NCBI GenBank assembly: GCA_943787795.1
Contig: CALSNU010000002.1
Span: forward strand, 256,001-320,000
Origin: an uncultured bacterium
GTDB lineage: Bacteria > Planctomycetota > UBA1135 > GCA-002686595
Length of the DNA: 64,000 nt
Direction of reading: 5' to 3'
The notes below the pieces were generated by a model. That model searched no databases and had not been told where the DNA came from. It saw only the letters and a list, made by a program, of their open reading frames with translations. Position 1 is the stretch's first letter. Every line of letters begins with the position of its first letter. Made by a program: the position numbers and the translations under genes. This document shows positions 40,946-57,480 of the stretch, piece by piece.

Positions 40946-43318
40946 TCACATCATCGAGGCCGGGTCAACGTCGATGGCCATGCGCGGACGCTGGGTCTGA
41001 AGATCCGCGAGGATCGCCCTGGCCCGGGAGAGCCCCTGTCCGGAGAGGGGCGCCTTCAGCAGCAGGTGCCAGCGGTGCCGACCCCGGAGGAGCGCCATGG
41101 GAGCAGGAGCAGGGCCCAGCACGTCCACCTTGTGCTCGCCGAGCGCCTCGCGGAGGATCGCGGCGGCCCGCGCCGCGGCGTCCTTGGCCCGCGCCTCCTC
41201 CTCGTCCTCCCAGATGACCCGCAGGAGGCGACGGTACGGCGGATAGCCCAGCTCGGATCGTGCCCGGTCCTCCTCGAGGGCGAAGGACTCGAAGTCATGA
41301 CGCGCCGCGTGCCGGATGGAGGGCTCCTCCACCGAGGTCGTCTGCACCACGATGTGCCCGGGTAGGTCGGCCCGGCCCGCGCGCCCCGAGACCTGGCTCA
41401 CCAGCTGATAGGTGCGCTCGGCCGCGCGGAAGTCAGGCTGATGCAGGGAGGCGTCCGCCGAGACGATGCCCACCAGCGTGACCTTCGGGAAGTCGAGCCC
41501 CTTGGCGATCATCTGCGTCCCCACCAGTACGTCCAGCTCGCCGCGCCCGAAGGCGGAAAGCGTCTCCTCGTAGTCCTCACGCCGCATCATCGTGTCCGAG
41601 TCCATGCGCCCCACCTTCGCGTGGGGACACAGCACCCGCAGGATCTCCTCCACCCGCTGCGACCCGGCGCCGAGGAAACGCAGGGCCGGGGCCGTGCAGG
41701 CGGGGCACGCGCGCGGCACCTCGATCTCCTGGCAGCACGAGTGGCACACCATCCGCTCGTGCCGCTTGTGCCAGGTCATCGCCACGTCGCAGTCCTCGCA
41801 GCGCAGGGTCTCGCCGCACTCCTGGCACCACAGGACCGGCGCGAAGCCGCGCCGATTGATGAAGAGGATGACCTGCTCGGAGCGCGCGATCGTCTCGCGG
41901 AGCAGCTGCTCGAGCCGGCGCGAGAACAGCCGCGGCTTGCCTCGCTCGTCGCGCTCGCCGCGCATGTCCACCACCTCGACCTCGGGGAGCGGCCGACCCG
42001 AGGCTCGGGCGCGGAGTTGAAGAAGCTCGTAGCGACCCAGGCTCGCGTTGCGCCAGCTCTCCAGCGACGGCGTCGCGCTCCCGAGGACACAGACCGCGTC
42101 CGCGTGCTTCGCCCGCAGCACAGCCACGTCCCGGGCGTGATAGCGAGGCACGCTGCCCTGCTTGTATGAGGGCTCGTGCTCCTCGTCCACGACGATGACG
42201 CCGAGGTCCTTGACCGGCGCGAAGATCGCCGACCGGGCGCCCACGACCACCCGCGCCTCGCCACGCCGGACCCGCTGCCACATGTCGAGGCGCTGCACGT
42301 CGGTCATCCCGCTATGCAGGACCGCGACGGCGCCGAAGCGGTCCAGGAACCACCCGACGGTCTGGGGCGTGAGCGCAATCTCCGGCACCAGCACGATGGC
42401 CCCCTTGCCGCGCTCGAGGGCCGCCTCGATCAGGCGCAGATAGACCTCCGTCTTGCCGCTCCCCGTGACGCCATGGAGCAGCGCCGTGCAGAAGCTCCCC
42501 TGATCCAACGCCTCGGTGAGCCGCTCGACCGCCGTCCCCTGGTCCTCCGTGAGCTGGGCGTGGCGCGGCCGCGCCTCGCGATCGCCCGAGAGGAGGTCAT
42601 CGGGGGCCGCCACCACGTGTTCGAGCACGGCGAGGCCCTTCTTGACCAGCGTGCGGATGGGCCCGTCGGTGACGTTGAGCTTCTTGATGACGTCGACGCG
42701 CGCGATGGGCCCACGCGCCTCGAGCAGGGTCCGAAGGACCCGGTGCTGCTTCGCGTTGGCCGCGCCCTCCAGCTCCGCGAGCCGGGATTCGTCCACGCCC
42801 TCGGCTGGCGACACCACCACCACCGTCCGGCGGCCGCCCTCGCGCTTCAGCGCCGCCGGGAGCACGGCCGCGAGCGCCTCGCCCCAGGAGCACGCGTAGT
42901 AGTCGGCCATCCATCGCGTGAGGTCGAGCAGGTGTTCGTCGAGCACCGGCTCCGAGTCCAGCACCTCGGCGATGGGCTTCAGGCGGCCCGCGGGGACGTC
43001 AGTGGTCTCCCGGGTGGCGACGACGACGGCGATCTCACGGCGCCCGGAGAAGGACACCACCACCCTCACCCCCGCCTCGACGCGCGCCTCCAGCTCCGCG
43101 GGGACCGCGTACGTGTACTCGCGCCGCATGGGCCGATTCAGGGCCACCTCGGCGAAGAGCTTCGCAGCCGGCCCCTTGGGGCCAGCGGCGCTGGATCCAG
43201 TGGCGCGGGATCCCGCCGAACGGCGGCGCTCGGGCTCACGCACGAGCTCGGGCCCGAAGAGGCCGTCGACCTTCTTCGTTGCCCCTAGCTCGTTACTCCT
43301 GCTCCGTCCTCGACCCAT
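40946..43318 (-). CDS. priA: Primosomal protein N' (replication restart helicase)
   Basis: GVTGSGKTEVY, VPEIALTPQ, DEEHE, four CxxC pairs, GTQMIAKGLDF, QVSGRAGR. Confidence 0.97.
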   Translation of the reverse strand: MGRGRSRSNELGATKKVDGLFGPELVREPERRRSAGSRATGSSAAGPKGPAAKLFAEVALNRPMRREYTYAVPAELEARVEAGVRVVVSFSGRREIAVVVATRETTDVPAGRLKPIAEVLDSEPVLDEHLLDLTRWMADYYACSWGEALAAVLPAALKREGGRRTVVVVSPAEGVDESRLAELEGAANAKQHRVLRTLLEARGPIARVDVIKKLNVTDGPIRTLVKKGLAVLEHVVAAPDDLLSGDREARPRHAQLTEDQGTAVERLTEALDQGSFCTALLHGVTGSGKTEVYLRLIEAALERGKGAIVLVPEIALTPQTVGWFLDRFGAVAVLHSGMTDVQRLDMWQRVRRGEARVVVGARSAIFAPVKDLGVIVVDEEHEPSYKQGSVPRYHARDVAVLRAKHADAVCVLGSATPSLESWRNASLGRYELLQLRARASGRPLPEVEVVDMRGERDERGKPRLFSRRLEQLLRETIARSEQVILFINRRGFAPVLWCQECGETLRCEDCDVAMTWHKRHERMVCHSCCQEIEVPRACPACTAPALRFLGAGSQRVEEILRVLCPHAKVGRMDSDTMMRREDYEETLSAFGRGELDVLVGTQMIAKGLDFPKVTLVGIVSADASLHQPDFRAAERTYQLVSQVSGRAGRADLPGHIVVQTTSVEEPSIRHAARHDFESFALEEDRARSELGYPPYRRLLRVIWEDEEEARAKDAAARAAAILREALGEHKVDVLGPAPAPMALLRGRHRWHLLLKAPLSGQGLSRARAILADLQTQRPRMAIDVDPASMM

Positions 43319-43418: not shown

Positions 43419-44840
43419 TCAGGCGGCGCCTTCGGGGTCCCTTCCGAGCACGATGATGGACACATCCGCAGGGAAGGACTCCTCGTCGGCGAAGGCCTCC
43501 AGCGCGGTCAGGATCCCATCCAGAACCACCTCCGTATCCTCATCCGCGTTACGGAGGAAGAGCTTGTAGAAGCGCTTCTCACCGATCTCCTCGCCCTTCA
43601 GCGAGACCACGCGGACCGCGCCCGTCCCCGCCAGCGCGACCCGATCACCGGGGGCCAGCGGGACCTGCCTGGCGGAGATGCTCCGCTCGAAGACCGGTCC
43701 GCGGTCGAACCCCAGCGCGATGCCGTCCGGCTGGATGGCGCGGATGACGTTCTCCTCACGGGACCAGTGGATGAGCGGGAGCTTGTGCCCCGCAGACACC
43801 ACCTCCAACTCGTGGCGCTCCTGGTCGAGGGCCGCTGCGAGGACGGTCACGAACATCCCGCGGCGGACCTCGCGCGCGAGGACGCGGTTCACACCCTTCA
43901 GCACGTCCTCGAGCGAGCCACCCTGGCGGAACGCCGTCTTCAGGTACGCGCGCGCCATGGCCCCGACCAGGGCTCCCGGCACTCCGGTCCCGCTCACGTC
44001 GCAGGCGAAGAAGATCAGCCGCCCGTCCTCGGCCTCTACGAAGTCGTGGAAGTCGCCGCCCGGCTCCGCCGACCCCACGTGCTCCGAGGCCACGTCGTAC
44101 CCTTCGGGGACCGGAATATCGGTGGGGCGGAGAGCCTCTTGAACCTCGAGCGCCACCTCACGTTCACGCTCCCTGACCGAGAGCTCCATCTCCGCGTCGC
44201 GCGCCTCGCGAAGGGAGTCGGTCATGCGGTCCATGGCCCCGGCAAGGAGCGCCACTTCCCCGCCGCCCTGGGCTCGCACCCGGTGGGTCAGGTTGCCGTT
44301 GGCGATCGCGCGGACATCGTCCACGAGCGAGGTGATCGGCTGGCTCACGCGGTTGGCGACGCCCACAGCCACCGCGGCGGCGACCATCAGCACGATCATG
44401 GTCAACGCGAAGACGAGGCCGTAGAGCTTCGCGAGCGGGTCGTCATCCACCGCCGCAGCAGCGGTCACGCCGACGATCTTGTTCTCGGTCTGCGCCTCGC
44501 GGAAGTAGGCGTAGCCGTCCTCTCCGCTCCGGTTCTCGGAGGTGAAGGTCACGCGACCCCGGAGGATGCCTGGCACGACCCGGACCGCGTCCGTGTTGGG
44601 CTGAATGAACGGCAGCTCGCCGTCCTGGTACTGCGACAGCGCGACGGCGGCCTCATCGCGGGCATCGTCGACCGCGGTCTCAAGGATCTCGCTGGTCGCC
44701 CCGAGCATCAGGTACGAGAAGACCAGCAGGACGAGCGTCAGGGGGATCATCATCGCCACGACGAAGCGCGGCGCGATCTTCAGCCCCACACCCCGCGAAC
44801 CGCTGCGCTCCCGCCCCGCGTCCTCGCGCTGACTCACCAT
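43419..44840 (-). CDS. Membrane HAMP + SpoIIE/RsbU-like PP2C domain protein (degenerate active site)
   Basis: Two TMs, HAMP, ALEVQEAL, GGDFHD, DVSGTGVPGAL, MFVT, SAGH; later motifs altered. Confidence 0.85.
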   Translation of the reverse strand: MVSQREDAGRERSGSRGVGLKIAPRFVVAMMIPLTLVLLVFSYLMLGATSEILETAVDDARDEAAVALSQYQDGELPFIQPNTDAVRVVPGILRGRVTFTSENRSGEDGYAYFREAQTENKIVGVTAAAAVDDDPLAKLYGLVFALTMIVLMVAAAVAVGVANRVSQPITSLVDDVRAIANGNLTHRVRAQGGGEVALLAGAMDRMTDSLREARDAEMELSVREREREVALEVQEALRPTDIPVPEGYDVASEHVGSAEPGGDFHDFVEAEDGRLIFFACDVSGTGVPGALVGAMARAYLKTAFRQGGSLEDVLKGVNRVLAREVRRGMFVTVLAAALDQERHELEVVSAGHKLPLIHWSREENVIRAIQPDGIALGFDRGPVFERSISARQVPLAPGDRVALAGTGAVRVVSLKGEEIGEKRFYKLFLRNADEDTEVVLDGILTALEAFADEESFPADVSIIVLGRDPEGAA

Positions 44841-45403
44841 CAGAGCAGCGACGCGCTGAAGGCCGCGAGGGAACCCACCACACCGCCACCATCGACCCCA
44901 AGGGTCCACGCGCTGGGCTCCAGGAAGAAGGTACGCAGCAGCGCCATGACGCCCAGGCCGTAGATGCCCGCGACCACGTCGTCCAGCAGGATCCCGTCCC
45001 CGCCGGGGATGCGCTCGAAGCGCTTCACGGGGGGCGGCTTGGCGATATCGAAGAAGCGGAACACCACGAACGCGACGAAGAGCGAGAGGAGGGTGGGTCC
45101 CCCGACCCAGGCCACGGTCACGAGGTAGCCGATGACCTCATCCACCACGAAGAAGCCCGGGTCCTTCCCCGCGTGGGCCTCGGCCCAGGGGGCCACGGCG
45201 CGCCCCAGAACGTAGAGGACGAGGGCCGCCACGAGCGCCGAGACCAGGAAGTTGGGGGTCCCGGAGAGCAGCCAGGCGATCAAGACGCCGCCGAGGGTCC
45301 CGAAGGTCCCCGGCGCCACCGGCGCGAGGCCCAACCCGCCGAAGGAAGACACGGCCATGCAGGCGATCGCCTTCGGGGTCCACCGGGTGCCCTCGGCGGT
45401 CAA
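44840..45403 (-). CDS. pgpA: Phosphatidylglycerophosphatase A
   Basis: APGTFGT, DPGFFVVDEVIG, FRFFDIAKP, GILLDDVVAG; TTG start overlapping pgsA stop. Confidence 0.93.
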   Translation of the reverse strand: MTAEGTRWTPKAIACMAVSSFGGLGLAPVAPGTFGTLGGVLIAWLLSGTPNFLVSALVAALVLYVLGRAVAPWAEAHAGKDPGFFVVDEVIGYLVTVAWVGGPTLLSLFVAFVVFRFFDIAKPPPVKRFERIPGGDGILLDDVVAGIYGLGVMALLRTFFLEPSAWTLGVDGGGVVGSLAAFSASLL

Positions 45404-46032
45404 GCGTCGACCTCCCTGAGGATGTCGCGCGTCCGGAGGCAATAGGTGATCCCGGAGCCAATGGTGGTCACCAGAGTCAGCAGAACGAGGCCCTTGACGA
45501 CCAGGTCCCAGAAGTGGAGCCACCAGTCCCCCCAGGGGAAGGCCTCGATCCAGATCAGCCCCCCGACCGCGATGCTCTGGACGATCATCTTGATCTTGCC
45601 GAAGCCGTCAGCCGGGAACTCTCGCCCGAGGCTCTCGATGTAGCCGCGCAGCCCGGTCACCAGGAACTCCCGGGCGAGGATCACCACAACGTAGGTCGCC
45701 GGGAGGCGCTCAGCCGACCAGGGCATGACGCACAGGTAGACCATGGAGCCCAGGATCAAGACCTTGTCCGTGAAGGGGTCCGCGATCCGGCCGAAGGCCG
45801 TGATGATCTGATCCCTGCGTGCGAGGTAGCCGTCCAGGTAGTCGGTGGCCGCGACGACCACGAAGAGCCAGAAGGCGATGAAGAACGGAGCTCGCTTCTG
45901 CTCGATCTGCTCCGCAGACACGTCCCCCCAGACCGCGAAGATGGCGAACAGCACGAGGGAGCCAGCGAAGCGGATCATGGTGATCCGGTTGGGCCAGTGG
46001 GCGAAGACGCCGTCGCGATCCGCTCCGGTCAT
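45400..46032 (-). CDS. pgsA: CDP-diacylglycerol--glycerol-3-phosphate phosphatidyltransferase
   Basis: PNRITMIR, TDYLDGYLAR, GRIADPFTDK, REFLVTGLR, GKIKM. Confidence 0.9.
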   Translation of the reverse strand: MTGADRDGVFAHWPNRITMIRFAGSLVLFAIFAVWGDVSAEQIEQKRAPFFIAFWLFVVVAATDYLDGYLARRDQIITAFGRIADPFTDKVLILGSMVYLCVMPWSAERLPATYVVVILAREFLVTGLRGYIESLGREFPADGFGKIKMIVQSIAVGGLIWIEAFPWGDWWLHFWDLVVKGLVLLTLVTTIGSGITYCLRTRDILREVDA

Positions 46033-47387
46033 GCCGGATCTCCCGCCACCTGCGTGCCGATCCAATTGTGTTCCTGGTCGGTGGCCTCGATGCGCACGCG
46101 GATGCGGTCTCCGACCGCGGCATCAGGTGCTGCCGCGAAGGTGACCATGTCGACCTCGGGCGCATCATGGACCGTACGACCAACAATGACGCCGCCGTCG
46201 GGGTCAGGCGGCTCGTCCACGAGCACCTCGACCTCCGTCCCGATAGCACTGGATTGGGTCTTGGCCAACTGAGCGTCACGCTCCTCGAGCACCGCATCCC
46301 GGCGGGCCATGGCCTCCTCCTCCGGGACGCTCCCCTCGAGGCCGAAGCCCGGGGTGCCCTCCTCGGGGGAGTACGTGAAGGCGCCGACTCGGGAGAGCTC
46401 GAACTCGCGGATGAGGTCCACGACCTCGGCGGCGTCCTGGTCGGTCTCCCCGGGGAAGCCAAGCAGCACCGTGGTCCGCAGCGTCAGGCCAGGCACCTCG
46501 GTGCGCAGGCGGTCCAGCGTACGGCGGACCTGATCGCCGCTGCCTGCCCGGCGCATGGCCCGCAGTACGGGCGTCGCGGCGTGCTGAACAGGGATGTCCA
46601 GGTAGGGCACCACCTTGGGGTGCTCCGCGAGCAGGGGTGCGAGGTCCCAGGGAAAGCGGTTGGGGTAGGCGTACATCACGCGCAGCCTGGCGTCACCGTC
46701 GAGGTCTGCGAGGGACTCCACGAGGGCGGGTAGCTCCGTGCCCAGGTCGCGCCCCCAGGCGGTCGAGTCCTCTGCCACCACAACCAGTTCCTTGACGCCA
46801 GCGCCGATCAGCTCCTCGGCCTCCTCGAGGACATCGGAGGGGCGCTTCGAGCGATGGGGTCCGCGGATCGAGGGGATGGCGCAGAAGGAGCACGTGTGGT
46901 CGCAGCCATGGGAGATCCGCAGATAGGCGTAGCTGCCAGGCGTAGCGAGGAGCCGAGCCCCCTCACGGCGCGGCTCACGCAGGCCGGGCCCCTCGAGGTA
47001 CCGCTGATGCTTCTCCCCCTCGGACATGCTGCGGATGTTCCGGGCGAGCGCGCGGTAGTCGCTGATCTCCGCGAACATGTCCACGTCGGGATACTGACGC
47101 TCGAGGGTCCGGCGGTAGCGCTGGACCAGGCAGCCCGCGACGACCACGGCGCCCAGGTCCCCCGCCTGCTTGCGCTCCACGAGATCACGGATCGCGCCGT
47201 GGCTCTCCTCTCTCGCAGGCCCGATGAAGGAGCAGGTGTTCAGGACCACCGTGTGCGCCTCCTCCGGATCGCCCGTGACGACGAGCCCTTCCTCCGCCAT
47301 CCGACCGAGGATCAGCTCGGAGTCGATCAGGTTCCTGGCACACCCGAGGTGAATCAGGGCCACACGGTCAGCGGGACGGACTGTCAA
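46029..47387 (-). CDS. rimO: Ribosomal protein S12 methylthiotransferase RimO
   Basis: LGCARNLIDSE, NTCSFI, CDHTCSFCAIP radical SAM motif, GFPGET, TRAM domain DAPEVD. Confidence 0.95.
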   Translation of the reverse strand: MTVRPADRVALIHLGCARNLIDSELILGRMAEEGLVVTGDPEEAHTVVLNTCSFIGPAREESHGAIRDLVERKQAGDLGAVVVAGCLVQRYRRTLERQYPDVDMFAEISDYRALARNIRSMSEGEKHQRYLEGPGLREPRREGARLLATPGSYAYLRISHGCDHTCSFCAIPSIRGPHRSKRPSDVLEEAEELIGAGVKELVVVAEDSTAWGRDLGTELPALVESLADLDGDARLRVMYAYPNRFPWDLAPLLAEHPKVVPYLDIPVQHAATPVLRAMRRAGSGDQVRRTLDRLRTEVPGLTLRTTVLLGFPGETDQDAAEVVDLIREFELSRVGAFTYSPEEGTPGFGLEGSVPEEEAMARRDAVLEERDAQLAKTQSSAIGTEVEVLVDEPPDPDGGVIVGRTVHDAPEVDMVTFAAAPDAAVGDRIRVRIEATDQEHNWIGTQVAGDPA

Positions 47388-47404
47388 GGGGATCAGAGGT
47401 CAGG

Positions 47405-49825
47405 TCAGGAGTGGGCGAAGTGGTCCTCCCACTCCTCCTCGCTCAGGAGGATATCACGCTTCTTGCCCCCCTTGTACGGGCCGATCAAGCCCTCCGCCTG
47501 AAGCTGATCCAGAAGTTGGCAGGCCTCATCGAACTCCATGTCGAGCTCCTGCTGGAGGACCGAGACCGCCACTCGGCCCTGCCGCACGAGCACGCGGCCC
47601 GCCTTGAGGAGTCGTTCGGAGTCCGCCGAGGCCCCGGAGGGCGGCGACTGGGGCTCGAGAATGACGGCCTCCTCCTCGAGCGCCTCCTCGTACTCGTCCG
47701 GATCAGCGTCCTCGAGCTCTGCGGCCGCCTCGTCCTCCTCGAGGTCCTCCTCGGGATCCTCCGCAGGGTCCTCTTGGGGGCTCTCATCCTCGGCGGCCTC
47801 CTCGTACTCGGCCTCCTCGTACTCAGCCTCCTCCTCCTCGTCGGGCTCCTCCTCGTCGCCTTCCTCTTCTTCCTCTTCTTCCTCTTCTTCGTCGAGCTCG
47901 GCCGCTTCGTAGTCGTCCTCGTCCACGAGCTCGTAGTCACCGTCCTCGAGGGCGTCGATGTCGATCGGGTTGCCGTCCTCGTCGACGTACTCGTACTCGT
48001 CTGACTCTTCCTCAGGCTCTTCCTCAGGCTCTTCCTCAGGCTCCTCCTCAGGCTCCTCCTCCTCAGCTGAAATCTCGTCAGCCGGGGCCTCACCCTCGAG
48101 CGAGTCCTCCGGCGAATCGGCGGCCTGAGCCTCCTCCCCATGGGCGAGGGCGCCCCCTTCCGGCTCGTCACCAGAGCCCGGACCGGCGGTCGGTACAGCG
48201 GGATCTTCAGCCGTGCCGCCGCGGGTCCAGGTCCCATCGGCCTCGGAGACCGTGTCTCCTTCGAAGCCGCCTTCCCACGAGGCCGGGGGTCTCGGGAGCG
48301 AGAGCTCGTCCACATCCGACTCCAACGGCGCCACGCCGCTGGGGAGATCGGTGACCGATGCTTCGGGGGCGGCGGCGCCATCGCCCACCGATCCAGGCGC
48401 CAGATCTCCCTCTCCACCCAGGCGAAGCGACTCCTCGTCGTCCACCAGGTCGAAGGGAGCCACGTCTCCGATCGGGGTCGTGAGTTCAGCAGAAGGGGCC
48501 GGGGGGACGACCTCTGCAGCGGGGGGAGCGGGGCCAGCAGCGGCGGCGCCCCCAAGGGGCGTGGTTCCCTGGGGGATCTCCCCCTTGAGCCGAGGATCGT
48601 CAGGGTAGGGCGAGGGCGGAATCGGCTCCACCTGCTGGAGGCTGGCCGAGGCGTCGCGCCAGACCTCCTCCATGTAGGCGAGGGTGTTGCCGTCCGGCGC
48701 GAGGGCAGCCGCCTCATCGTGAGAGACTCCCTCCGCCTCCCCTCGCACCAGAGCGTCGCCGAGGGTCTTGGGCTCGCTCTTCTTCGGGGCAGGCATCGCG
48801 ACCCGGGGCCGCCTGCTCATCAGGCGACCGCTGACGGCGCCCACCAGACCCCCGAGCCAGCTTGGAATCGCAGCGAAGGAGAAGCCGCCTGCTTGCGCGG
48901 AGGGGGAGGGACCGTCCACCACCGGGTCAGCCTCACGGTCAAGCAGCGGCATCCCGGCGCCTGTGGAAGCCGGTGAGGCCGGATCGGCTGCCGGTACTTG
49001 CTCGGCGCTCGGTCGCGCGGGGGTGACGGCCTCCGAAGCTGCTTCGGGCGCGACGCCGCTGGAAGCTGCCGGGCGGCCACCGGTCGCCTGAGACGGCTTG
49101 GGCCGGCGAGACGCGGCGCCCACGGACTCCTCGGGCCCGCCTGCCGCCTCACCGCCCTTCGCCTTCCCGCCAGCGCCCCTGGGGGCACTTGATCCTGAAC
49201 CGGGTGACTTGCTGGCGGGCCGACTGCTGGACTGCCCGCCGCGACTCGGAGGGGAGATCTCCTGCACCGCCGGCCCCGAGCGCTCGGCGCTCGCGCGCCG
49301 CAGCTCGGGTCCATCGAGGGAGACCTCGAGGGTCCTCGAGCCCTCCCTGGGCGCCTCGGCGAAGGCGAGCCAGAGCGCGACGGCGACGATGCCAGCGCCC
49401 ACGAGGATGCCAGCCCAGGGGCCGACGGCGTCCGCCAGCCGGGCGCCGGTCCCGTCGCCGATCCGTCCACCCGAGCCGACAGCCAGGGCGCTCGAGATCG
49501 CCGCGACGCCGAGGCCACAGACCACGATCCCGACCATCCGGCGCATGAGGTCAGACCGGAGCGCGCCCAGAACGGCCATGGCGCCGAAGACCGCGATGGC
49601 GCCGGAGATCATGAGGCCCGGCCACGTCCCGACCCAGGTCTCCACCCGGGCCGCGAGGGCGGCGGTGCCACCTAGCCCAGCCGAGGACAGGTCCGTGCCA
49701 TCCCGGACGGCCTTGATCAGGGCGACCGCAGGCAGGCACCCGATGAGAAACAGAACGCCACCGAGGAGCTCGGGCCCCCTCGAGGGAATCCGGGCCGCGC
49801 CGCGCTTACGAGGGTCTTCCTTCAT
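47405..49825 (-). CDS. Motor-less FtsK-like protein (N-terminal TM domain, long disordered acidic linker, C-terminal FtsK-gamma domain)
   Basis: About 4 TM helices incl. GGRIG; no Walker A/B; C-terminus AVSVLQQELDMEFDEACQLLDQLQAEGLIGPYKGGKKRDILLSEEEW aligns to the FtsK gamma domain. Confidence 0.8.
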   Translation of the reverse strand: MKEDPRKRGAARIPSRGPELLGGVLFLIGCLPAVALIKAVRDGTDLSSAGLGGTAALAARVETWVGTWPGLMISGAIAVFGAMAVLGALRSDLMRRMVGIVVCGLGVAAISSALAVGSGGRIGDGTGARLADAVGPWAGILVGAGIVAVALWLAFAEAPREGSRTLEVSLDGPELRRASAERSGPAVQEISPPSRGGQSSSRPASKSPGSGSSAPRGAGGKAKGGEAAGGPEESVGAASRRPKPSQATGGRPAASSGVAPEAASEAVTPARPSAEQVPAADPASPASTGAGMPLLDREADPVVDGPSPSAQAGGFSFAAIPSWLGGLVGAVSGRLMSRRPRVAMPAPKKSEPKTLGDALVRGEAEGVSHDEAAALAPDGNTLAYMEEVWRDASASLQQVEPIPPSPYPDDPRLKGEIPQGTTPLGGAAAAGPAPPAAEVVPPAPSAELTTPIGDVAPFDLVDDEESLRLGGEGDLAPGSVGDGAAAPEASVTDLPSGVAPLESDVDELSLPRPPASWEGGFEGDTVSEADGTWTRGGTAEDPAVPTAGPGSGDEPEGGALAHGEEAQAADSPEDSLEGEAPADEISAEEEEPEEEPEEEPEEEPEEESDEYEYVDEDGNPIDIDALEDGDYELVDEDDYEAAELDEEEEEEEEEEGDEEEPDEEEEAEYEEAEYEEAAEDESPQEDPAEDPEEDLEEDEAAAELEDADPDEYEEALEEEAVILEPQSPPSGASADSERLLKAGRVLVRQGRVAVSVLQQELDMEFDEACQLLDQLQAEGLIGPYKGGKKRDILLSEEEWEDHFAHS

Positions 49826-49840
49826 GGATCGATTGGCTCA

Positions 49841-52573
49841 TCAAGCCTTGTCCAGGTTGGCCTGGTTCTCCTCCCAGTCCTCGAGGGTCATGAAGATCTC
49901 CCGAGCCTTGGACCCCATGTGGGGGCCGAGGATCCCGGCGTCGCTCATCTGATCAATCAGCCGCGAGGCACGGGTGTATCCGATCCCCAGGGCCCGCTGG
50001 AGGAGGCTGGCGGAGCCGCGGCGATACTTGAGGACGACGGAGACGGCCTCGTTGAACATCTCGTCGACCTTCTCGCCGCCCTGGTTCACAGAGCCCGGAG
50101 GCGCTGTCCCGGTGGCGGTCTGAACGAGCTGCTGGTCGAAGTTCGGTGCGGCCTTCTCGCACACGTGGTCCACCAGCGCCTGGAGCTCGTGATCCTCCAC
50201 GAGGGCGCCCTGAACGCGGACCAGCTGGCTGGACTGCGGCGGCGTGTAGAGCATGTCGCCCTGGCCGAGGAGCTTCTCGGCCCCCATCTGGTCGAGGATG
50301 ACGCGGCTGTCGATCTTGGACGCGACCTGGAAGGCGATCCGCGTGGGCAGGTTGCCCTTGATCAGGCCCGTGATGACGTCAGTGCTCGGGCGCTGGGTGG
50401 CGACGATGACGTGAATGCCGACGGCGCGCGCCTTCTGCGCGAGGCGCGCGATGGCCTGCTCCGCCTCCTTCTTGGACTGCATCATCAGGTCCGCCATCTC
50501 ATCGATGACAAACACGATGTAGGGCACGTGACGCGGGGTGTACTCCTCGTTGAAGTCGTCCCCGAGGCGCTCTCGGAGCTTGTCCTCACCGAGCTTGTTG
50601 AACGCCTTGATGTTCTTGACGCCGGCGTTGTTGAAGAGCTCGTAGCGGCTCTCCATCTTCTCGACCGCCCAGAGCAGGACGTTCGTCGCCTGCTTCATGT
50701 CGGTGACGACCGGCAGCTCGAGGTGCGGGATGTTCTGGAAGATCGACAGCTCGACCATCTTCGGGTCGATCAGGATCAGCTTCACATCGTGCGGCGAGCG
50801 CGTGAGCATGATGCTGGCGATGATCGTGTTGATGCAAACGGACTTACCAGAGCCCGTGGTGCCGGCGATCAGCATGTGCGGCGCCCGCGCGAGGTCCTCG
50901 ACGACGGACTTGCCCTCGGCGTCCATCCCGAGGAACAGCGGCAGCGCCAGGACGTCGTTGTCGTACGCCTCCTGGGTGACCAGCTCGGAGATTCGCACCG
51001 TCCGGCGGTCCTTGTTCGGGACCTCCACGCCGATCGTGTTCTTGCCCGGGATCGGCGCGATGATCCGCACGCTGCGCGCCCGGAGCGTCGCCGCGATCTC
51101 CTGGGCGAGGGCCGTCACCTTGTTCATCCTCGTGCCCTGGGTGACCGTCAGCTCGAACATGGTCACGGCCGGGCCGACCTGGGCGCCCACCACCTCGGCT
51201 TCCACGCGGAAGCTCCGAAGCGCGTTCTCGAGGTTCTCGGCGCTGGTCTCGAGGAACTCCTTGTCCACCCGGGCGCTGCCGCTGGGGGCCTCGAGGAGCT
51301 CGAAGGAGGGCAGCTCCCAGGGGCCCGGGGGTGGGGTCGGGGGCTCGTAGATGGGCTGGCTGATCGTCGAGGCGCGCTTCGCGGCGGCGGCGGCGGCGCG
51401 CTTCGCCTTCGCGGAGACCTCCGCCTCGTCGAAGTTCAGCTCGGGCTCGGGCTCCACCTCAACAGCGGCCTTCTTCTTCGAGCGAGAGCGGCTCTTCTTG
51501 GCCGCAGGCTGGATGATCTCCGGCTCCTCCTCGACCTCCTCTTCCCACTCCTCTTCCTCCCACTCACCCTCCTCGAGCTCGTCGGGATCCACCGGGTTGC
51601 CGTCCTCGTCGACGTACTCGTACTCGACCTCCTCGTCTTCCTCCTCCTCGATGTCCTCCACGTCATCGTGGGCCTCGAGGTCAGGGAGCGGGTCCTTCTT
51701 GGCCCTGGAGGCCGGCTTGCGCGGCCCGCGCGCAGCGGCCTTCCTGCCGCTCTTCTTGCCCCCCTTGGCCGCACCGGGCGCGAGGTCCGCGCCACGAAGG
51801 AAGTCCCAGATCCCCACGAGGAGGCGCTTGGTCCATCCCAGCACAGCGGGGAACGTGTGCTCCCCCATGCGGTCGCGGCGATCCTCCAGCCACTCCCCAA
51901 AGGCACTGATGGCCGTATAGAACGCCATCTCGGTGGCCAACAGGGCGGAGATGATGGCCATGGTGAGGAGCACCACCCACAGCCCGATCTGGCCGAAGCG
52001 GTCCACGAGGCCCCCGTTCGACACGAGCGCCAGCCAGCCTCCAGGACCGTAGGGCAGGTCCGGAGAGAGGCTCGACATCACCTCGTCCTCACCGACCTGG
52101 CTCAGCTCGTCCTGCGCAGCCAGGAAGGCCTCCCTCGACTCCAGGTCTGGCCCGAAGCCCAGGTCGAGGACGAAGGCCGTGCTCAGCACGAAGCACACCA
52201 CGCCCAGGAAGCGCAGCATCGGCATCCGGATCTCCCGCCGCGCGACCACGATCGCGCCCCAGAAGATGCCCAGGATCGCGAGCAGGTAGCCTGAGAGGCC
52301 GATGGCGCAGAAGGCGCCGTTCGCGAGGTAGTGCCCGAGCCGGCCGCCGAGGTTCGCCCCCTCGGGGGCTGCCGCCAGCGGAGTGCTGAACGTCACCATG
52401 GACAGCAGCATCCAGATCGAGGTCCCCACCAGCGCCAGGCCCCCCAGCTCGCGTACCCGCGCTGACGAGTCGTCGTCCAGGGGCTCGCCCATGACGAGAC
52501 TAGCCGCGAGCTGACGCCAGCGGCCTCGATCAGCCCCGCGGGCTGCTTTCTTCTTTGACTTCTTTCGCGCCAA
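49841..52573 (-). CDS. ftsK: DNA translocase FtsK
   Basis: N-terminal TMs (NLGGRLG), GPAVT, IPGKNTIGVEVPN, AGTTGSGKS, DPKMVEL, VIDEMADLM, ATQRPS, gamma SASLLQRALGIGYTRASRLID; start uncertain (TTG 52573 or 52603). Confidence 0.97.
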   Translation of the reverse strand: MARKKSKKKAARGADRGRWRQLAASLVMGEPLDDDSSARVRELGGLALVGTSIWMLLSMVTFSTPLAAAPEGANLGGRLGHYLANGAFCAIGLSGYLLAILGIFWGAIVVARREIRMPMLRFLGVVCFVLSTAFVLDLGFGPDLESREAFLAAQDELSQVGEDEVMSSLSPDLPYGPGGWLALVSNGGLVDRFGQIGLWVVLLTMAIISALLATEMAFYTAISAFGEWLEDRRDRMGEHTFPAVLGWTKRLLVGIWDFLRGADLAPGAAKGGKKSGRKAAARGPRKPASRAKKDPLPDLEAHDDVEDIEEEEDEEVEYEYVDEDGNPVDPDELEEGEWEEEEWEEEVEEEPEIIQPAAKKSRSRSKKKAAVEVEPEPELNFDEAEVSAKAKRAAAAAAKRASTISQPIYEPPTPPPGPWELPSFELLEAPSGSARVDKEFLETSAENLENALRSFRVEAEVVGAQVGPAVTMFELTVTQGTRMNKVTALAQEIAATLRARSVRIIAPIPGKNTIGVEVPNKDRRTVRISELVTQEAYDNDVLALPLFLGMDAEGKSVVEDLARAPHMLIAGTTGSGKSVCINTIIASIMLTRSPHDVKLILIDPKMVELSIFQNIPHLELPVVTDMKQATNVLLWAVEKMESRYELFNNAGVKNIKAFNKLGEDKLRERLGDDFNEEYTPRHVPYIVFVIDEMADLMMQSKKEAEQAIARLAQKARAVGIHVIVATQRPSTDVITGLIKGNLPTRIAFQVASKIDSRVILDQMGAEKLLGQGDMLYTPPQSSQLVRVQGALVEDHELQALVDHVCEKAAPNFDQQLVQTATGTAPPGSVNQGGEKVDEMFNEAVSVVLKYRRGSASLLQRALGIGYTRASRLIDQMSDAGILGPHMGSKAREIFMTLEDWEENQANLDKA

Positions 52574-52722
52574 CTCGACTACTCCGCGCGTCTCCCCCCT
52601 CAAGGAGACGAACTGCCCTCCATCGTTGCGTTCCGGGGAACGCGGTTCAACGATAGGCGCCCGTGAATGGGCCCTCTGGCCCGATCCTTCCGAGAAATAA
52701 GCTCCCGCCCTGCCTGCTGCTC

Positions 52723-54186
52723 ATGCTCCTGGCCCCCCTCGCCTCCACCGCGCTTCTGCTGACGTCACCGGCCCCCCTCCAGGAGACCCCCGTGGCTCCC
52801 GAGGTCCTGGACAGCCTCGTCGTCGCTCCGGACGAAGAACTGAAGCTCACGGACACGGGTCCGACAAAGAAGGGCCCCTGGAAACTGCAGGACGCGGTCG
52901 GAGCGCCGGCGTGGCTAGAGGTCAGCGGTCAGTTCCGGACACGATTCGAGAACCTGAGCGAACGCTTCAAGATCATTCAGGACGAGGGGAGCGGCCAGAT
53001 CCTGGTCCTCCGCACGCTCCTCGCCATGACCCTCAAGGACGAGTTCCTCTCCCTCACCACCGAGCTCGAAGATTCGAGGGCGTACGGCTACCCCAGCGAC
53101 GAGATCCTCTCCACCGGTCAGGTCAACGCCGTGGAGCTGCTCCAGGCCTACGCCAGGGCGGACTTCAGTGACATGTTCACGGGCGGCGACAAGACGCGCG
53201 TCAAGCTCGGCCGCCAGACGATGGACATGGGGAGCCGACGGTTCGTGGCCCGTAACCGCTACCGGAACACGATCAACTCGTTCCTCGGCGCGAACGCGCG
53301 CTGGGAGGACAACACGGGCAGAGCCGTGGAGGCCTTCTTCACCAGCCCCACTGTCCGGCTGCCCAACGCCGGCGATCAGGAGGCCCTCAGGAACAACGAG
53401 ATCCAGTTCGATAAGGAGTTCGCGGACAACAACTTCTGGGGCCTGTTTGGCTCCCACAAGGAGGTCATCGAGAACGTCAACGCCGAGCTCTACTACTACG
53501 GGCTCGATCGCGGCGACGTGTTCAACCTCGCGGTGGCGGACCGCAAGCTGCACACCTTCGGGAGCCGCTGGTACCGCCCCACAGCTGCCGGAGAGCCCTT
53601 CTGGGAGATCGAGTACGCCTACCAGTTCGGCGAGTCCCGCAGCACGAAGGCGGCGTCGAACACGACCGACCTCGACCACAGCGCCTACATGCTGCATGTC
53701 TCCGGCGGCTACGCGTTCGATCACAGCTCCGCCCTGAAGGTCGAGGGCCTGTTCGACATCGCGACCGGCGATAGCAACCCGAACGACGGGCAGAACAACC
53801 GCTTCGACTCCCTCTTCGGCGTCCCCCGTTTCGAGTTCGGCCCCACGGGGATCTTCCGATCCTTCACCCGCGCGAACATCATCTCGCCCGGCCTGCGGCT
53901 CACAGGGAACGTCGTCGACGACTGGCAGGTCCAGCTGACCCAGCGGCCGTACTACCTGGAGTCCAAGACCGACGCGTGGACGACCACCGGGTTCCGGGAT
54001 GACACCGGCTCCTCGGGCCGACACGTGGCGGACGTCACCGAGATCCGGGTGCGTAAGCCCCTGCTGAACGGAGGCGCTCGCTTCGAGTTCGGGGGCGCTT
54101 ACCTGGCGATGAAGGAGTTCGCCAAGAACGAAGGGGACGGCAAGGACTCGATCTACACCTACGCGCAGATCACCTTCAGCTTCTGA
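52723..54186 (+). CDS. Alginate export family outer-membrane beta-barrel
   Basis: GQFRTRFE, LEDSR, ELLQAY, LGRQTMDMGSRRFVARNRYRNTINSF, ATGDSNPND, C-terminal FSF. Confidence 0.85.
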   Translation: MLLAPLASTALLLTSPAPLQETPVAPEVLDSLVVAPDEELKLTDTGPTKKGPWKLQDAVGAPAWLEVSGQFRTRFENLSERFKIIQDEGSGQILVLRTLLAMTLKDEFLSLTTELEDSRAYGYPSDEILSTGQVNAVELLQAYARADFSDMFTGGDKTRVKLGRQTMDMGSRRFVARNRYRNTINSFLGANARWEDNTGRAVEAFFTSPTVRLPNAGDQEALRNNEIQFDKEFADNNFWGLFGSHKEVIENVNAELYYYGLDRGDVFNLAVADRKLHTFGSRWYRPTAAGEPFWEIEYAYQFGESRSTKAASNTTDLDHSAYMLHVSGGYAFDHSSALKVEGLFDIATGDSNPNDGQNNRFDSLFGVPRFEFGPTGIFRSFTRANIISPGLRLTGNVVDDWQVQLTQRPYYLESKTDAWTTTGFRDDTGSSGRHVADVTEIRVRKPLLNGGARFEFGGAYLAMKEFAKNEGDGKDSIYTYAQITFSF

Positions 54187-54197
54187 TCCCGGCCGTC

Positions 54198-54253
54198 CTG
54201 CGCCTGCGAGACTGCGCCTGCGAGACTGGGCCTGCGAAACTGGGCCTGCGAGA
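54198..54253. repeat. 14-bp tandem repeat (CTGSGCCTGCGARA) x4, intergenic
   Basis: ctgcgcctgcgaga ctgcgcctgcgaga ctgggcctgcgaaa ctgggcctgcgaga. Confidence 0.85.
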
Positions 54254-54329
54254 CCCGGAGCCGGCGGCAGGCGTCCACCGGCTCCTTCCCCAGGCTCCTC
54301 GGACAGCGCCCCTCCGGGGGCTTTAGAGC

Positions 54330-54983
54330 TCAGCTTGGCGTCGGGCCGTGGGGGCCGATGAGCTGGATGAGGCGCGCCGCCGTCTCCCGCTTGGGGCAGC
54401 CCTCCGCTGACCAGAGCGCACCGTCGGCGTCGAAGACCGTGACGCTGGACTCCGGCGCGTTCAGGGCGCTGGCGCCGTTGAGGACGATCCAGTCGGCGTT
54501 CTTGCGCACGAGCTTCGCGGCCGCCCGCCTCTCGCCGTCCGCCGTCTCGAGGGCAAACGCGATGACCTTGCGGTCTCCCTTGTCCCTGGTGATGGTGCGC
54601 AGCAGGTCCGGATTCTCGACGAGCTCGAGCACCGCTGGGGCGCCGCCCTCCTCCTTCTTCTTCCACTTGCCGTCGAGCCGCTCACGGGGCCTGAAGTCAC
54701 CCACTGCGGCGGCCATGTAGATGGCATCGGCCCGCGGAAAGTGCTCCTCCAGCGCGGCGAGCATGTCCAGGGCGCTCACCACGTCGACCCGCTCGACCCC
54801 TGGCGGGGTCTCCAGGTGAACCGGACCCGCGATCAGGGTCGCGCGGTGCCCCGCTTCCACCGCCGCGCGCGCGATCTCGAAGCCCATTCGACCGCTGGAC
54901 TCGTTCGAGAGGTAGCGGACCGGGTCGAGGTGCTCACGGGTAGGACCCGCGGTCACGAGCACGTGCAAGGAGCCGGAGGCCAA
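54330..54983 (-). CDS. coaB: Phosphopantothenoylcysteine synthetase (stand-alone CoaB)
   Basis: VTAGPTREHLDPVRYLSNESSGRMG, AAAVGDF, NPDLL, FALET. Confidence 0.92.
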   Translation of the reverse strand: MASGSLHVLVTAGPTREHLDPVRYLSNESSGRMGFEIARAAVEAGHRATLIAGPVHLETPPGVERVDVVSALDMLAALEEHFPRADAIYMAAAVGDFRPRERLDGKWKKKEEGGAPAVLELVENPDLLRTITRDKGDRKVIAFALETADGERRAAAKLVRKNADWIVLNGASALNAPESSVTVFDADGALWSAEGCPKRETAARLIQLIGPHGPTPS

Positions 54984-54985
54984 GT

Positions 54986-55534
54986 TCAGGCCCCCTGACC
55001 GAGGGCTCGCTCCGCCGCAGCCACGATCGTGGCCGGCTCGGCGAGCCGCCCTGCGCCCTTATCTCCGCAGGCCATGTGCCCTTCCTCGGCCTCCACCAGG
55101 GACCAGCCGTCCGCTCGAAGGACGTCGAGGTTCCTCTGGACGGCCGGGTTGGCGAGCATGTGGGGATTCATGGCCGGGCAGACCAGCCGCGGAACGCCCG
55201 CCGGCACGGCGAGCAGCGTGGTCGTCACGAGGTCGTTCGCCATCCCATGGGCCAGTCGCCCGGCGAGGTCCGCGGAGCAGGGGGCGACGATCACCAGGTC
55301 CACCGACCGGGAGAGCTCGATGTGGTCCATCGCTCCGCGGCGCTCGTCTCCCCACTCGGACACCTGGGCAGCCTCACCCGTCACGGCGTGGAAGAGCTGG
55401 GGCGAGACGAGCCGCGCGGCGTTCTCGGTCATCGCCGTCCGCACCTGGTGTCCGTTCTGAGCGAGCTTGCTCGCCAGGTCACAGGCCTTGTAGACCGAGA
55501 CCGAGGCGGAGCAGCACAAGAGGATGTGGGCCAT
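54986..55534 (-). CDS. coaC: Phosphopantothenoylcysteine decarboxylase (stand-alone CoaC)
   Basis: SVSVYKA, HIEL, APCSAD, PAMN, MACGDKGAGRL. Confidence 0.92.
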   Translation of the reverse strand: MAHILLCCSASVSVYKACDLASKLAQNGHQVRTAMTENAARLVSPQLFHAVTGEAAQVSEWGDERRGAMDHIELSRSVDLVIVAPCSADLAGRLAHGMANDLVTTTLLAVPAGVPRLVCPAMNPHMLANPAVQRNLDVLRADGWSLVEAEEGHMACGDKGAGRLAEPATIVAAAERALGQGA

Positions 55535-55605
55535 CTTGGGGTCTCGGTCCGAGGTCAGGGGAATGGGTGCTCCGAGCCTTGAGGCGCAGCCCTCGTCGAG
55601 GGTGC

Positions 55606-56184
55606 TCAGGCGTTGGAAGGGATCGGGAGGCCGACGATCTTGCGGATCTCGGTGACGGCACGGTCGAGGTCATCGTTCACGACGATGTGATCGTACTTCA
55701 CGCGCTCACGATACTCGTCCTCGGCCTTCTTCAGGCGCCGCTCGAGCACCTCAGGCGTCTCGGTACCGCGCCCGGAGAGCCGCTGACGCAGCACCTCGAA
55801 GGTCGGAGGAGCCACGAAGACGTAGATGCCGTCCACCTCGAGCGCCTTGAGCTGAAGGGCTCCCTGGACGTCGATCTCCACGAGGTAGGTCTTGCCGGCG
55901 GTGATGGCCTCGCGCATGGGCGCCCTGAGGGTGCCGTACATGTTCCCGTGGACCTCGGCGTGCTCCACAAAGTCGCCCGCCTCGATGCGCGCCTTGAACT
56001 CGTCCACCGAGAGGAAGTGATAGTGCGTGCCGTCCACCTCACCCGGTCGGGGCGCCCGCGTGGTCGCCGAGACGCTGAAGACCACCTGCTCGTCCTCGAG
56101 CAGCTGCCTGCAGATGGTGCTCTTCCCGCAGCCGGAGGGTCCCGAGATGAGCAGGACGGATCCCTGATGATCGGAGGATGTCAT
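55606..56184 (-). CDS. gmk: Guanylate kinase
   Basis: SGPSGCGKST, SVSATTRAPRPGEVDG, YGT, EIDVQGA. Confidence 0.97.
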   Translation of the reverse strand: MTSSDHQGSVLLISGPSGCGKSTICRQLLEDEQVVFSVSATTRAPRPGEVDGTHYHFLSVDEFKARIEAGDFVEHAEVHGNMYGTLRAPMREAITAGKTYLVEIDVQGALQLKALEVDGIYVFVAPPTFEVLRQRLSGRGTETPEVLERRLKKAEDEYRERVKYDHIVVNDDLDRAVTEIRKIVGLPIPSNA

Positions 56185-57086
56185 TCGATGTTCTGGACCT
56201 GCTCCCTCATGCGCTCCACGTGGGTCTTGAGGTCCACCACAAGGTGCGCCACGTCGGCGTCATTGCACTTGGAGCCCACCGTATTGGCCTCCCTGAAGAA
56301 CTCCTGAGCCAGGAAGTCGAGCTGCCGGCCGACAGGTCCACCCCCGGACAGGACAGCCCGGAGCTGGCCGAGGTGGCTGTCGAGCCGGGTGATCTCCTCC
56401 GAGATATCCAGCCGATCGGCGAGCAAGGCGACCTCACGGGCGAGGTCCGCCTCCGCGAGGCTCTTGTCGGCCGCGAGCTCGCCGACGCGCTCCACGAGGC
56501 GCGCCCGGTGCCGGGTCGCTGCGCCCGCCATGCGCTCGGAGATCCTGGTCACCAGCGCGGCGATCTCCTCACCCGCGCCGGCCACGTCCGCCCCCATGGC
56601 CTCCCCCTCGGTGGCCCTCATCGCAAGCAAGGCCTCGAGGGCCTCGTCCACCGCCCCCAGCACCGCGCCCGCCTCTTCGCCCGCGAGGTCCAGGCTCTGC
56701 TTCGAGCGATCATGGACCAGGACTCCGGGGAGCCCGAGCATCTCCGTCACCGAGTCGATCGGTCTAAGCTCGGGGTGCCGCTCGGCCAGGGACCTCTGCA
56801 GCTCGCCGTAGCGTTCCACCGCGGAAAGGTCGACGTTGAATGACGGCTGCCCCCCGGTTCGCGCGACCTCGACCCCGACCTGCACTGCGCCCCGATTGAG
56901 CTTGGCGCGGACAGCCTTGTCCACGACGGCCTCGAGGGCTGCATATCCCTGGGGGAGGCGCACCTTCGCCTGAAGGTGCTTGTGGTTGACGGTCCGGACC
57001 TCGACAGAGATCGACAGCTCCGCGCCGTCCGACAGCGTTCGCTCGGCGCGAGCCGCGCCGAATCCGGTCATCGAGAGGAGCGTCAT
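56181..57086 (-). CDS. yicC: YicC/YloC family endoribonuclease
   Basis: SMTGFG, VNHKHL, DISEEITRL, GRQLDFLAQEFFREANTVGSK, REQVQNIE. Confidence 0.95.
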   Translation of the reverse strand: MTLLSMTGFGAARAERTLSDGAELSISVEVRTVNHKHLQAKVRLPQGYAALEAVVDKAVRAKLNRGAVQVGVEVARTGGQPSFNVDLSAVERYGELQRSLAERHPELRPIDSVTEMLGLPGVLVHDRSKQSLDLAGEEAGAVLGAVDEALEALLAMRATEGEAMGADVAGAGEEIAALVTRISERMAGAATRHRARLVERVGELAADKSLAEADLAREVALLADRLDISEEITRLDSHLGQLRAVLSGGGPVGRQLDFLAQEFFREANTVGSKCNDADVAHLVVDLKTHVERMREQVQNIE

Positions 57087-57123
57087 GCGTGCGCCCTCTT
57101 CGGGCAAACGAACCCGCCTGGGC

Positions 57124-57429
57124 TCAGCGGAGTTCCAGCCCGCTGACCTCTTCCACCGAGGTGTAGGGGGCCGCCTCGGAGAGGGAGCTGGTGCTCTGGC
57201 GCTTGTTGTTGAGGACGTGGATCAGCACGGCCGACGCCAGGAACGCGATGGCCACGTAAGCCGTGAAGCGCTGCACGCCTGACGCCTTGACCCCGAAGGC
57301 CTGCTGGCCAGCTGTACCGAGGGCATCCCCGAAGCCGCCGCCCTTGCCCTCTTGGAGGAGGATGACGACGGTCAGGATGATCGCCGCAGCGACGAACAGA
57401 ATGTAGAGGAGGGTGATCGCGAGGGTCAT
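57124..57429 (-). CDS. secG: Preprotein translocase subunit SecG
   Basis: Two TMs around ILLQEGKGGG...AFG; follows tpiA. Confidence 0.93.
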   Translation of the reverse strand: MTLAITLLYILFVAAAIILTVVILLQEGKGGGFGDALGTAGQQAFGVKASGVQRFTAYVAIAFLASAVLIHVLNNKRQSTSSLSEAAPYTSVEEVSGLELR

Positions 57430-57480
57430 CGTTCTAGGGGGGCGTGCCTTGGCGGCGTCCGCAGGGTGTGGCGCCGGGGC

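Follow-up and report, generated by a model that had tools for sequence, protein, structure and literature searches.

The DNA analysed here (the window) is a stretch of 64,000 nucleotides from an uncultured bacterium (contig CALSNU010000002.1, positions 256,001 to 320,000, forward strand) whose relatives carry the Planctomycetota label, and the subject of this report is one of its genes, P0001, a motor-less paralogue of FtsK encoded directly behind a full-length ftsK. The open reading frame (ORF) coordinates agree with a preliminary description of the locus, made from the letters alone, in placing an 806-amino-acid (aa) ORF 15 base pairs (bp) behind ftsK on the same strand; the ORF is uninterrupted, and 17 bp separate it from rimO. 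A Pfam scan of P0001 returns FtsK_gamma alone (aa 737-794, 42.1 bits against a cut-off of 30.6, E 7e-11), and the C-terminal gamma domain, for which a scan with hidden Markov models had been proposed as a check, is thus established above the cut-off. No FtsK_alpha, FtsK_SpoIIIE or FtsK_4TM match was found on P0001 in Pfam, nor any Walker A match in a pattern check of the ORF, which upholds the claim that the alpha/beta motor is absent, whereas all four FtsK domains (4TM, alpha, SpoIIIE, gamma) are found in the upstream FtsK. Neither P0001 nor its orthologue P0184 from Planctomycetes bacterium Poly30 has an NCBIfam match.

The N-terminal end carries four hydrophobic helices (aa 19-37, 71-89, 98-116 and 138-156), as the preliminary description had read them. 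BLASTP aligns FtsK and the paralogue in gamma only (32% over 81 aa), and profile alignment by hhalign joins the two four-helix membrane anchors with a probability of 99.3 (E 2.7e-20, 158 columns). That alignment corrects one detail, the pairing of GGRIG with the GGRLG of FtsK, which was off by one helix pair: GGRIG, before helix 4, pairs with GGWLA in FtsK, and the GGRLG of FtsK with GGTAA in the paralogue. The AlphaFold2 model of the anchor has a mean predicted local distance difference test (pLDDT) score of 87.9, and a fold search with it reached a best Z of 6.8, with no match at Z >= 8. Between the two ends lie about 570 aa, rich in Pro, Ala and Gly and then very acidic (Glu makes up 42% of aa 561-730); the claim of some 590 disordered residues therefore holds for a long low-complexity stretch, not for a featureless one, as a conserved island and a short motif stand within it (Table 1).

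Table 1. Features of the ftsK locus, in coordinates of the window
Feature	Position	Strand	Basis
Motor-less FtsK paralogue P0001, 806 aa (four-transmembrane-helix (4TM) anchor, linker, gamma)	47405..49825	(-)	Pfam, hydropathy, orthologues
ftsK, full-length, 910 aa from TTG at 52573 (4TM, alpha, ATPase, gamma)	49841..52573	(-)	Intact Walker A and GYTRASR loop
Four-helix membrane anchor, aa 19-156, homologous to FtsK N-terminal domain	49358..49771	(-)	Hydropathy, hhalign, AlphaFold2
Conserved 70-aa linker island, aa 356-426, family f1 only	48548..48760	(-)	Profile matches, dN/dS
11-residue motif EYEYVDEDGNP, aa 610-620, within acidic linker	47966..47998	(-)	Identical to FtsK aa 317-327
Copy of the 11-residue motif in the FtsK linker, aa 317-327	51593..51625	(-)	Sequence identity
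FtsK-gamma winged helix, aa 737-794	47444..47617	(-)	Pfam PF09397, E 7e-11; fold match
Gamma helix 2-3 loop, aa 759-770, equivalent of FtsK KOPS/XerD surface, acidic	47516..47551	(-)	Alignment to 2j5p, 2ve8
rimO, first of the conserved run rimO-pgsA-pgpA-HAMP/SpoIIE-priA	46029..47387	(-)	Name read from UPF0004, radical SAM and TRAM
pgsA, CDP-alcohol phosphatidyltransferase	45400-46065	(-)	Pfam; conserved context
pgpA	44840 to about 45424	(-)	Pfam; conserved context
HAMP-SpoIIE protein	43419-44909	(-)	Pfam; conserved context
priA	40946-43318	(-)	Pfam; conserved context

This architecture recurs across related genomes, for which we give counts rather than statistics, kin not being independent. 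Two gamma matches occur in 37 of 41 genomes ranging from genus to order, that of the window included, and among the 41 relatives 31 have the paralogue as the next gene after ftsK, with four more loci interrupted by contig ends, while two, both of family f9, lack it. Over the class, 103 of 112 genomes (all at least 90% complete except that of the window, at 85%) have at least two gamma matches, by which presence was counted; those without a second one are all five f9 genomes and four of family f10. As ftsK is the sole match of the anchor profile in each of the five f9 genomes, family f9 has, by this evidence, lost the paralogue. At two f9 loci (L068, L240) about 2 kb of other sequence lies between ftsK and rimO, and in genomes G039 and G289 rimO comes directly after ftsK. 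Pfam domains assigned to 52 orthologues comprise gamma in all 52 (47 above the cut-off), the motor domains PF17854 and PF01580 in none, and FtsK_4TM in 15 at E<=0.05 (five above the cut-off); a single regular-expression match to Walker A falls inside a gamma wing and was dismissed as chance. Searched against 1.84 billion representatives, the anchor profile gave 825 matches at E<=1e-10, the best 150 of which comprise 124 with gamma and without motor, none with a motor, and 26 with neither, mostly fragment-like. The estimated gap to ftsK, with starts picked by script, is <=15 bp in 35 of 61 tandem loci, and adjacency is maintained over about 20 families.

Beyond the class, at least two gamma matches were counted in 51 of 187 sampled genomes, and at 36 of these 51 loci inspected a motor-less gene stands behind ftsK in 29, from 12 families (for one of the 29, what is present of ftsK at the contig edge is a fragment); the others are four without an adjacent paralogue (G063, G080, G091, G154), two at a contig edge and one ambiguous case. 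Among 20 single-gamma controls outside the class, none had a motor-less gene at the ftsK locus. The expectation that a gamma-without-motor gene would be found beside ftsK in related genomes is thus borne out, by the 41-genome loci and by these 12 families. Its occurrence throughout the planctomycetes is not: besides the loss in f9, two large classes that were sampled yielded no such gene. One, the class of G075, probably Planctomycetia to judge from 57 DUF1559 matches, has a single gamma in 88 of 91 genomes, two others carrying gamma by itself as a separate ORF and one having a weak match below the cut-off, and a 4TM-gamma paralogue was indicated in none of the 91. The other, the class of G217, probably Phycisphaerae from the tree alone, has two gammas in none of 61 genomes. 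A single gamma was likewise found in 11 of 11 genomes of family f35, with hydrazine synthase matches in both of the two tested. Planctomycetia, Phycisphaerae and Brocadiia are placed, in one preprint, as sister to a branch with Saltatorellus and predatory classes (10.64898/2026.10.26.761892), and the paralogue may mark this second branch. The 'FtsK-like domain-containing protein' of Poly30 is an orthologue, 74% identical over the island; Poly30 is Saltatorellus ferox, described as lacking FtsZ and dividing by budding or fission (10.1101/817700). A separate observation concerns family f82 (G328, G349), of a class without the 4TM-gamma paralogue, where ftsK is immediately followed by an ORF of about 77 aa that encodes gamma alone, here too with a changed recognition loop (L232:3323-3568, L233:3113-3358); it may be a relic or reflect an independent recurrence of that event.

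The paralogue is old and under selection. In a FastTree phylogeny of anchor and gamma (232 columns), 52 paralogues and 77 FtsKs separate fully with support 0.949, in a set from which most congeners were left out and where long branches could aid the split and deep nodes are weak; anchor alone and gamma alone each give nearly the same division, and within the paralogues families group much as they do in the FtsK motor tree. These patterns fit a single old tandem duplication followed by vertical descent and some losses. The ratio of non-synonymous to synonymous substitution rates (dN/dS; Nei-Gojobori, dS partly near saturation) against eight congeners is 0.09-0.54 in the anchor, 0.05-0.23 in the island (aa 356-426), 0.03-0.17 in gamma and 0.26-0.66 in the linkers, values that point to purifying selection on both ends of the paralogue; FtsK is more constrained, its gamma having a dN/dS of 0-0.02. 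That P0001 might instead be a decayed duplicate or a misassembly has next to no probability. Two inspected copies are indeed split in two frames. The acidic repeat at about 47810-48025 is spanned by no contig from another run, so that it is chiefly the orthologues that argue against misassembly, all 52 of those scanned and the 124 library matches already mentioned having this architecture. A contig from an independent study moreover aligns gap-free to 48026-49922, differing at four bases, and gamma is covered by another, while conservation and dN/dS refute decay. The preliminary description had argued against simple decay and proposed dN/dS as a check, and it had named beforehand the outcomes that would tell against it (no gamma domain, no orthologues, a misassembly that removed the motor), none of which occurred; the usual signs of an ftsK pseudogene, such as frame breaks, neutral evolution or restriction to a single lineage, are not seen in P0001. 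One joint in a single run, linking 47987 to 51603, was set aside as a repeat artefact (depth 3, a 23-letter side and 39 foreign letters between).

The AlphaFold2 model of the retained gamma domain is a winged helix (pLDDT 81.2) with the gamma of Pseudomonas aeruginosa FtsK (2ve8) as top structural match (Z 9.5, root-mean-square deviation 2.7, 66 aligned residues); another winged helix ties with 2ve8 within 1 Z, and more follow within 1-2 Z. For Escherichia coli FtsK, two studies report that residues 1289-1297 (RQFRIGYNR), which touch both the FtsK-orienting polar sequences (KOPS) and XerD, are enough to stimulate recombination, gamma docking on the acidic XerD residues E183/E184 (PMC5052618), and that R1300, E1303 and E1306 are required for KOPS reading (PMC2680272). 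Aligned to 2j5p and 2ve8, P0001 has QELDMEFDE in place of RQFRIGYNR and Gln at the R1300 position. By sequence test, 93 of 98 FtsKs carry an intact G[YF]xRxxR motif (of the other five, three have Lys and two are truncated), as against 2 of 71 paralogues; a less strict rule applied to 124 further paralogues finds it in 15. Mean net charge over positions 1284-1300 is +3.0 in the FtsKs of family f1 and -3.0 in its paralogues (range -6 to 0). Gamma core and wing positions are conserved, with 23 columns invariant across 16 f1 sequences, the Q and R positions of helix 2 are also kept in paralogues, and the loop varies freely from family to family. The alignments thus indicate that the KOPS- and XerD-contacting residues are lost in paralogues generally while the winged-helix fold is kept, and that the acidic reversal is local to f1. 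Jointly with the view that P0001 is a partner of FtsK, we give about even weight to the proposal that its gamma is a protein-contact module instead of a KOPS reader or XerD activator.

Two other roles for gamma bear on the same residues. In the first, it would bind DNA non-specifically or at a non-KOPS motif and anchor the chromosome to the membrane without pumping, as a tether for which the kept fold, wing and helix-2 positions speak, together with a mean loop charge that stays positive in the 43 non-f1 paralogues (+1.5, +1.8) and a strongly strand-skewed heptamer, not the E. coli KOPS, in the window's own genome. The surface in f1, that of P0001 included, is acidic, however, and its free variation between families is unlike a sequence-reading surface, and we hold a tether to be unlikely. 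In the second, paralogue gamma would be an acidic decoy: by mimicking DNA it would occupy the basic face of FtsK-gamma, or that of XerC/XerD, and hold back KOPS loading or dif recombination until the proper time. The charge is reversed at exactly the KOPS and XerD surface of FtsK, two XerC/D-like integrase N-domains are present in the window's own genome, and the tether is long; against this, the reversal is f1-specific, an acidic gamma should be repelled by the acidic XerD residues on which gamma docks in E. coli, and no dif-like site was found in the genome with the pattern used, so that the decoy seems slightly less probable still than the tether. The heptamer itself, (A/G)TGGGGG, deserves record: in genome G000 it is very strongly skewed to the G-rich strand (GGTGGGGG 535 vs 33), far above the skew of GGGNAGGG (about 2:1), is spread rather evenly, with 10-30 copies per 50 kb, and is a candidate lineage-specific Chi or KOPS motif. 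Guanine-cytosine (GC) skew switches near 569 kb of contig C2 and near 198 kb of C6 suggest origin and terminus; the origin-like switch is about 260 kb away from the ftsK operon, whose strand is the G-rich, leading one.

The linker of the paralogue exceeds that of FtsK in length in 60 of 60 genomes (median 452 vs 201 aa). The island profile matches 27 f1 paralogues, none in other families and no FtsK, and an ESM Atlas search with aa 340-440 returned only hypothetical clusters (best score 0.83). The motif EYEYVDEDGNP is encoded by 33 of 33 identical nucleotides in paralogue and FtsK, and its core is matched at only these two places in the six frames of the genome. Such a common stretch occurs in 14 of 15 FtsK-paralogue pairs of genus g1, the exception ending at a contig edge, while none of 47 pairs outside the genus has an identical stretch, five of them passing a shuffle test, mostly on acidic runs. 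Retention of the motif in both linkers of the genus suggests a ligand common to the two proteins, and we infer that an old exchange between the neighbouring genes, followed by selection in both, could have produced it. Recent gene conversion as its source finds no support, the identical bases being codons that would be favoured in any case at 70% GC and the flanks differing.

The cellular setting lends interest to such a protein. FtsZ_C was found in none of the 112 class genomes, and MreB in 109, including all five of f9. FtsK is named as the sole canonical division protein kept by all planctomycetes (PMC12288469), as the organiser or leader of divisome assembly in FtsZ-less Chlamydia (PMC11975371), and as encoded by the only essential gene of the division and cell wall (dcw) cluster in Planctopirus (PMC12283558). 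This lead role and essentiality make an FtsK partner plausible. The prevalence of MreB also prompts the thought of a stand-in for RodZ, in which a membrane-anchored helix-turn-helix, no longer reading DNA, would hold MreB filaments at the membrane. The helix-turn-helix of RodZ binds MreB, and elsewhere rodZ occupies the slot before rimO-pgsA, which here the paralogue precedes; RodZ domains were not found in the window's own genome (85% complete). P0001 has no homology to RodZ, however, and HTH_25, a single membrane helix and RodZ_C are all missing from it (Pfam and hydropathy; by Pfam in the orthologues). Nor is the slot argument of the preliminary description supported, because several planctomycete families without the paralogue have ftsK directly followed by rimO, leaving the slot empty and tandem duplication alone sufficient to account for the position, and because HTH_25 is scarce phylum-wide (5 of 201). 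With f9 possessing MreB and no paralogue, we judge a RodZ stand-in improbable. An anti-correlation of paralogue and RodZ was likewise rejected, HTH_25 being scarce with or without the paralogue, as was co-loss of the paralogue with MreB, given f9.

At roughly even confidence we favour a membrane-tethered, non-pumping protein that partners FtsK as its scaffold or modulator. A copy of ftsK from an ancient tandem duplication dropped the alpha/beta motor and stayed as a separate membrane protein, probably made together with FtsK and brought to the same membrane site by its homologous four-helix domain, where it probably mixes into, or docks on, FtsK membrane oligomers. The longer tether would let the altered gamma and linker motifs reach the cytoplasmic part of FtsK or other division or segregation proteins, and the paralogue would act at the division site as a scaffold or modulator, with gamma serving protein contact and neither KOPS nor XerD. 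The anchor domain of E. coli FtsK is reported to be its division-essential part and to hexamerise by itself at midcell without the motor (PMC3870252). As to joint expression, contigs from RNA runs cover parts of the paralogue and one spans the ftsK junction (49574-49930), although contigs cannot show transcription and both runs come from a study that is possibly also the source of this DNA; a sigma-70 promoter scan of 44000-54500 gave 0 promoters, with four terminator-like sites against 3.2 expected. Complex prediction for the two anchors scored 0.00 in two runs and counts neither way, the controls being unfolded and the partner fold uncertain. A bolder version, which we advance as a long shot, makes the paralogue a central building block of the FtsZ-less divisome in the Saltatorellus branch of the phylum, where pumping and non-pumping subunits co-assembled through the common anchor would form a membrane lattice to mark where the cell divides and to link constriction with the clearing of the chromosome, replacing the organising role of FtsZ.

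Several observations weigh against a partnership with FtsK. Adjacency to ftsK is the default outcome of tandem duplication and hence a weak pointer, and in four of the 41 relatives (G019, G025, G034, G040) the paralogue stands apart from ftsK, in three of them staying with rimO-pgsA-pgpA. Family f9, with ftsK and mreB and without the paralogue, indicates that not every member of the class requires the latter. Outside f1 the loop keeps a net positive charge, and 117 of 124 further paralogues have R or K at the R1289 position, so that DNA contact is possible. The linker island belongs to one family and the common motif to one genus, and linker length and acidity, which correlate between the two genes per genome, do not do so over 19 family means (p 0.19, 0.52). 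Two copies (G097, G229) are split into two overlapping frames, for which assembly indels are the likely cause. The separated copies and lineage-specific islands could also be taken to favour a new job unrelated to FtsK, for example as an envelope or lipid-synthesis scaffold, with gene order reflecting inertia after duplication; adjacency over so many families, retention of both FtsK-derived ends and the same linker motif in both proteins speak against it, and we give it little credence, about as little as the acidic decoy.

The surroundings of the locus offer some further observations. A gene for an Alginate_exp-family outer-membrane protein (52663-54186, (+)) lies head-to-head with ftsK, between it and coaB, at many genus-g1 loci and at no displayed locus of other genera. 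The HAMP-SpoIIE (PP2C-type) membrane protein between pgpA and priA recurs in most paralogue-bearing families and in some without the paralogue. The coaB-ftsK order is widely conserved; in the window, separate coaB and coaC are preceded by gmk, a YicC-like gene, secG and tpiA (54330-58323, (-); names read from translations).

Full-text literature searches, which covered few subscription papers and did not extend to supplements that may list the gene, found no description of a motor-less FtsK paralogue, and the word ftsK is absent from the main text of two preprints on the lineage (10.1101/817700, 10.64898/2026.10.26.761892). The family is real, old, widely conserved and, apparently, undescribed; database labels, 'DNA translocase FtsK' or hypothetical, keep it hidden and can inflate ftsK counts. 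Although no such gene turned up in the class to which the genetically tractable models probably belong, the orthologue in cultured Poly30, which buds and divides by fission, makes localisation and pull-down feasible. A natural FtsK that keeps both ends minus the motor, across many classes, separates the scaffold role from the pump role, and is a concrete candidate component, its function being inferred, for division without FtsZ.

Among known systems, the FtsK/SpoIIIE translocases (those of E. coli and P. aeruginosa, and the ftsK upstream) share with the paralogue a four-helix anchor, a long low-complexity linker and a C-terminal gamma; unlike them, it has no alpha or ATPase domain, its KOPS/XerD residues are replaced, its linker is about twice as long, and it sits beside an intact ftsK. 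Also comparable are engineered motor-less versions of E. coli FtsK. The N-domain alone is reported to hexamerise at midcell (PMC3870252), and ftsK delta-LC cells, which lack linker and motor, to be capable of growth (PMC2680272). Such truncations were made in the laboratory and have no gamma, whereas the paralogue is natural, selected, carries gamma and coexists with full FtsK. Two FtsK-family genes also share the work within the cell in Bacillus subtilis, in which SftA is a second FtsK-family translocase beside SpoIIIE; both bear motors, unlike the paralogue, which keeps all but the motor. With RodZ it has in common a membrane location, a cytoplasmic domain of helix-turn-helix type that serves, in the paralogue presumably, for protein binding, and a place near rimO-pgsA, and differs in having no homology to it and in its four helices and C-terminal winged helix, without HTH_25 or RodZ_C. 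By its domain content, then, with neither motor nor recognition motif, the paralogue is not an FtsK translocase, though descended from one, and it is not RodZ.

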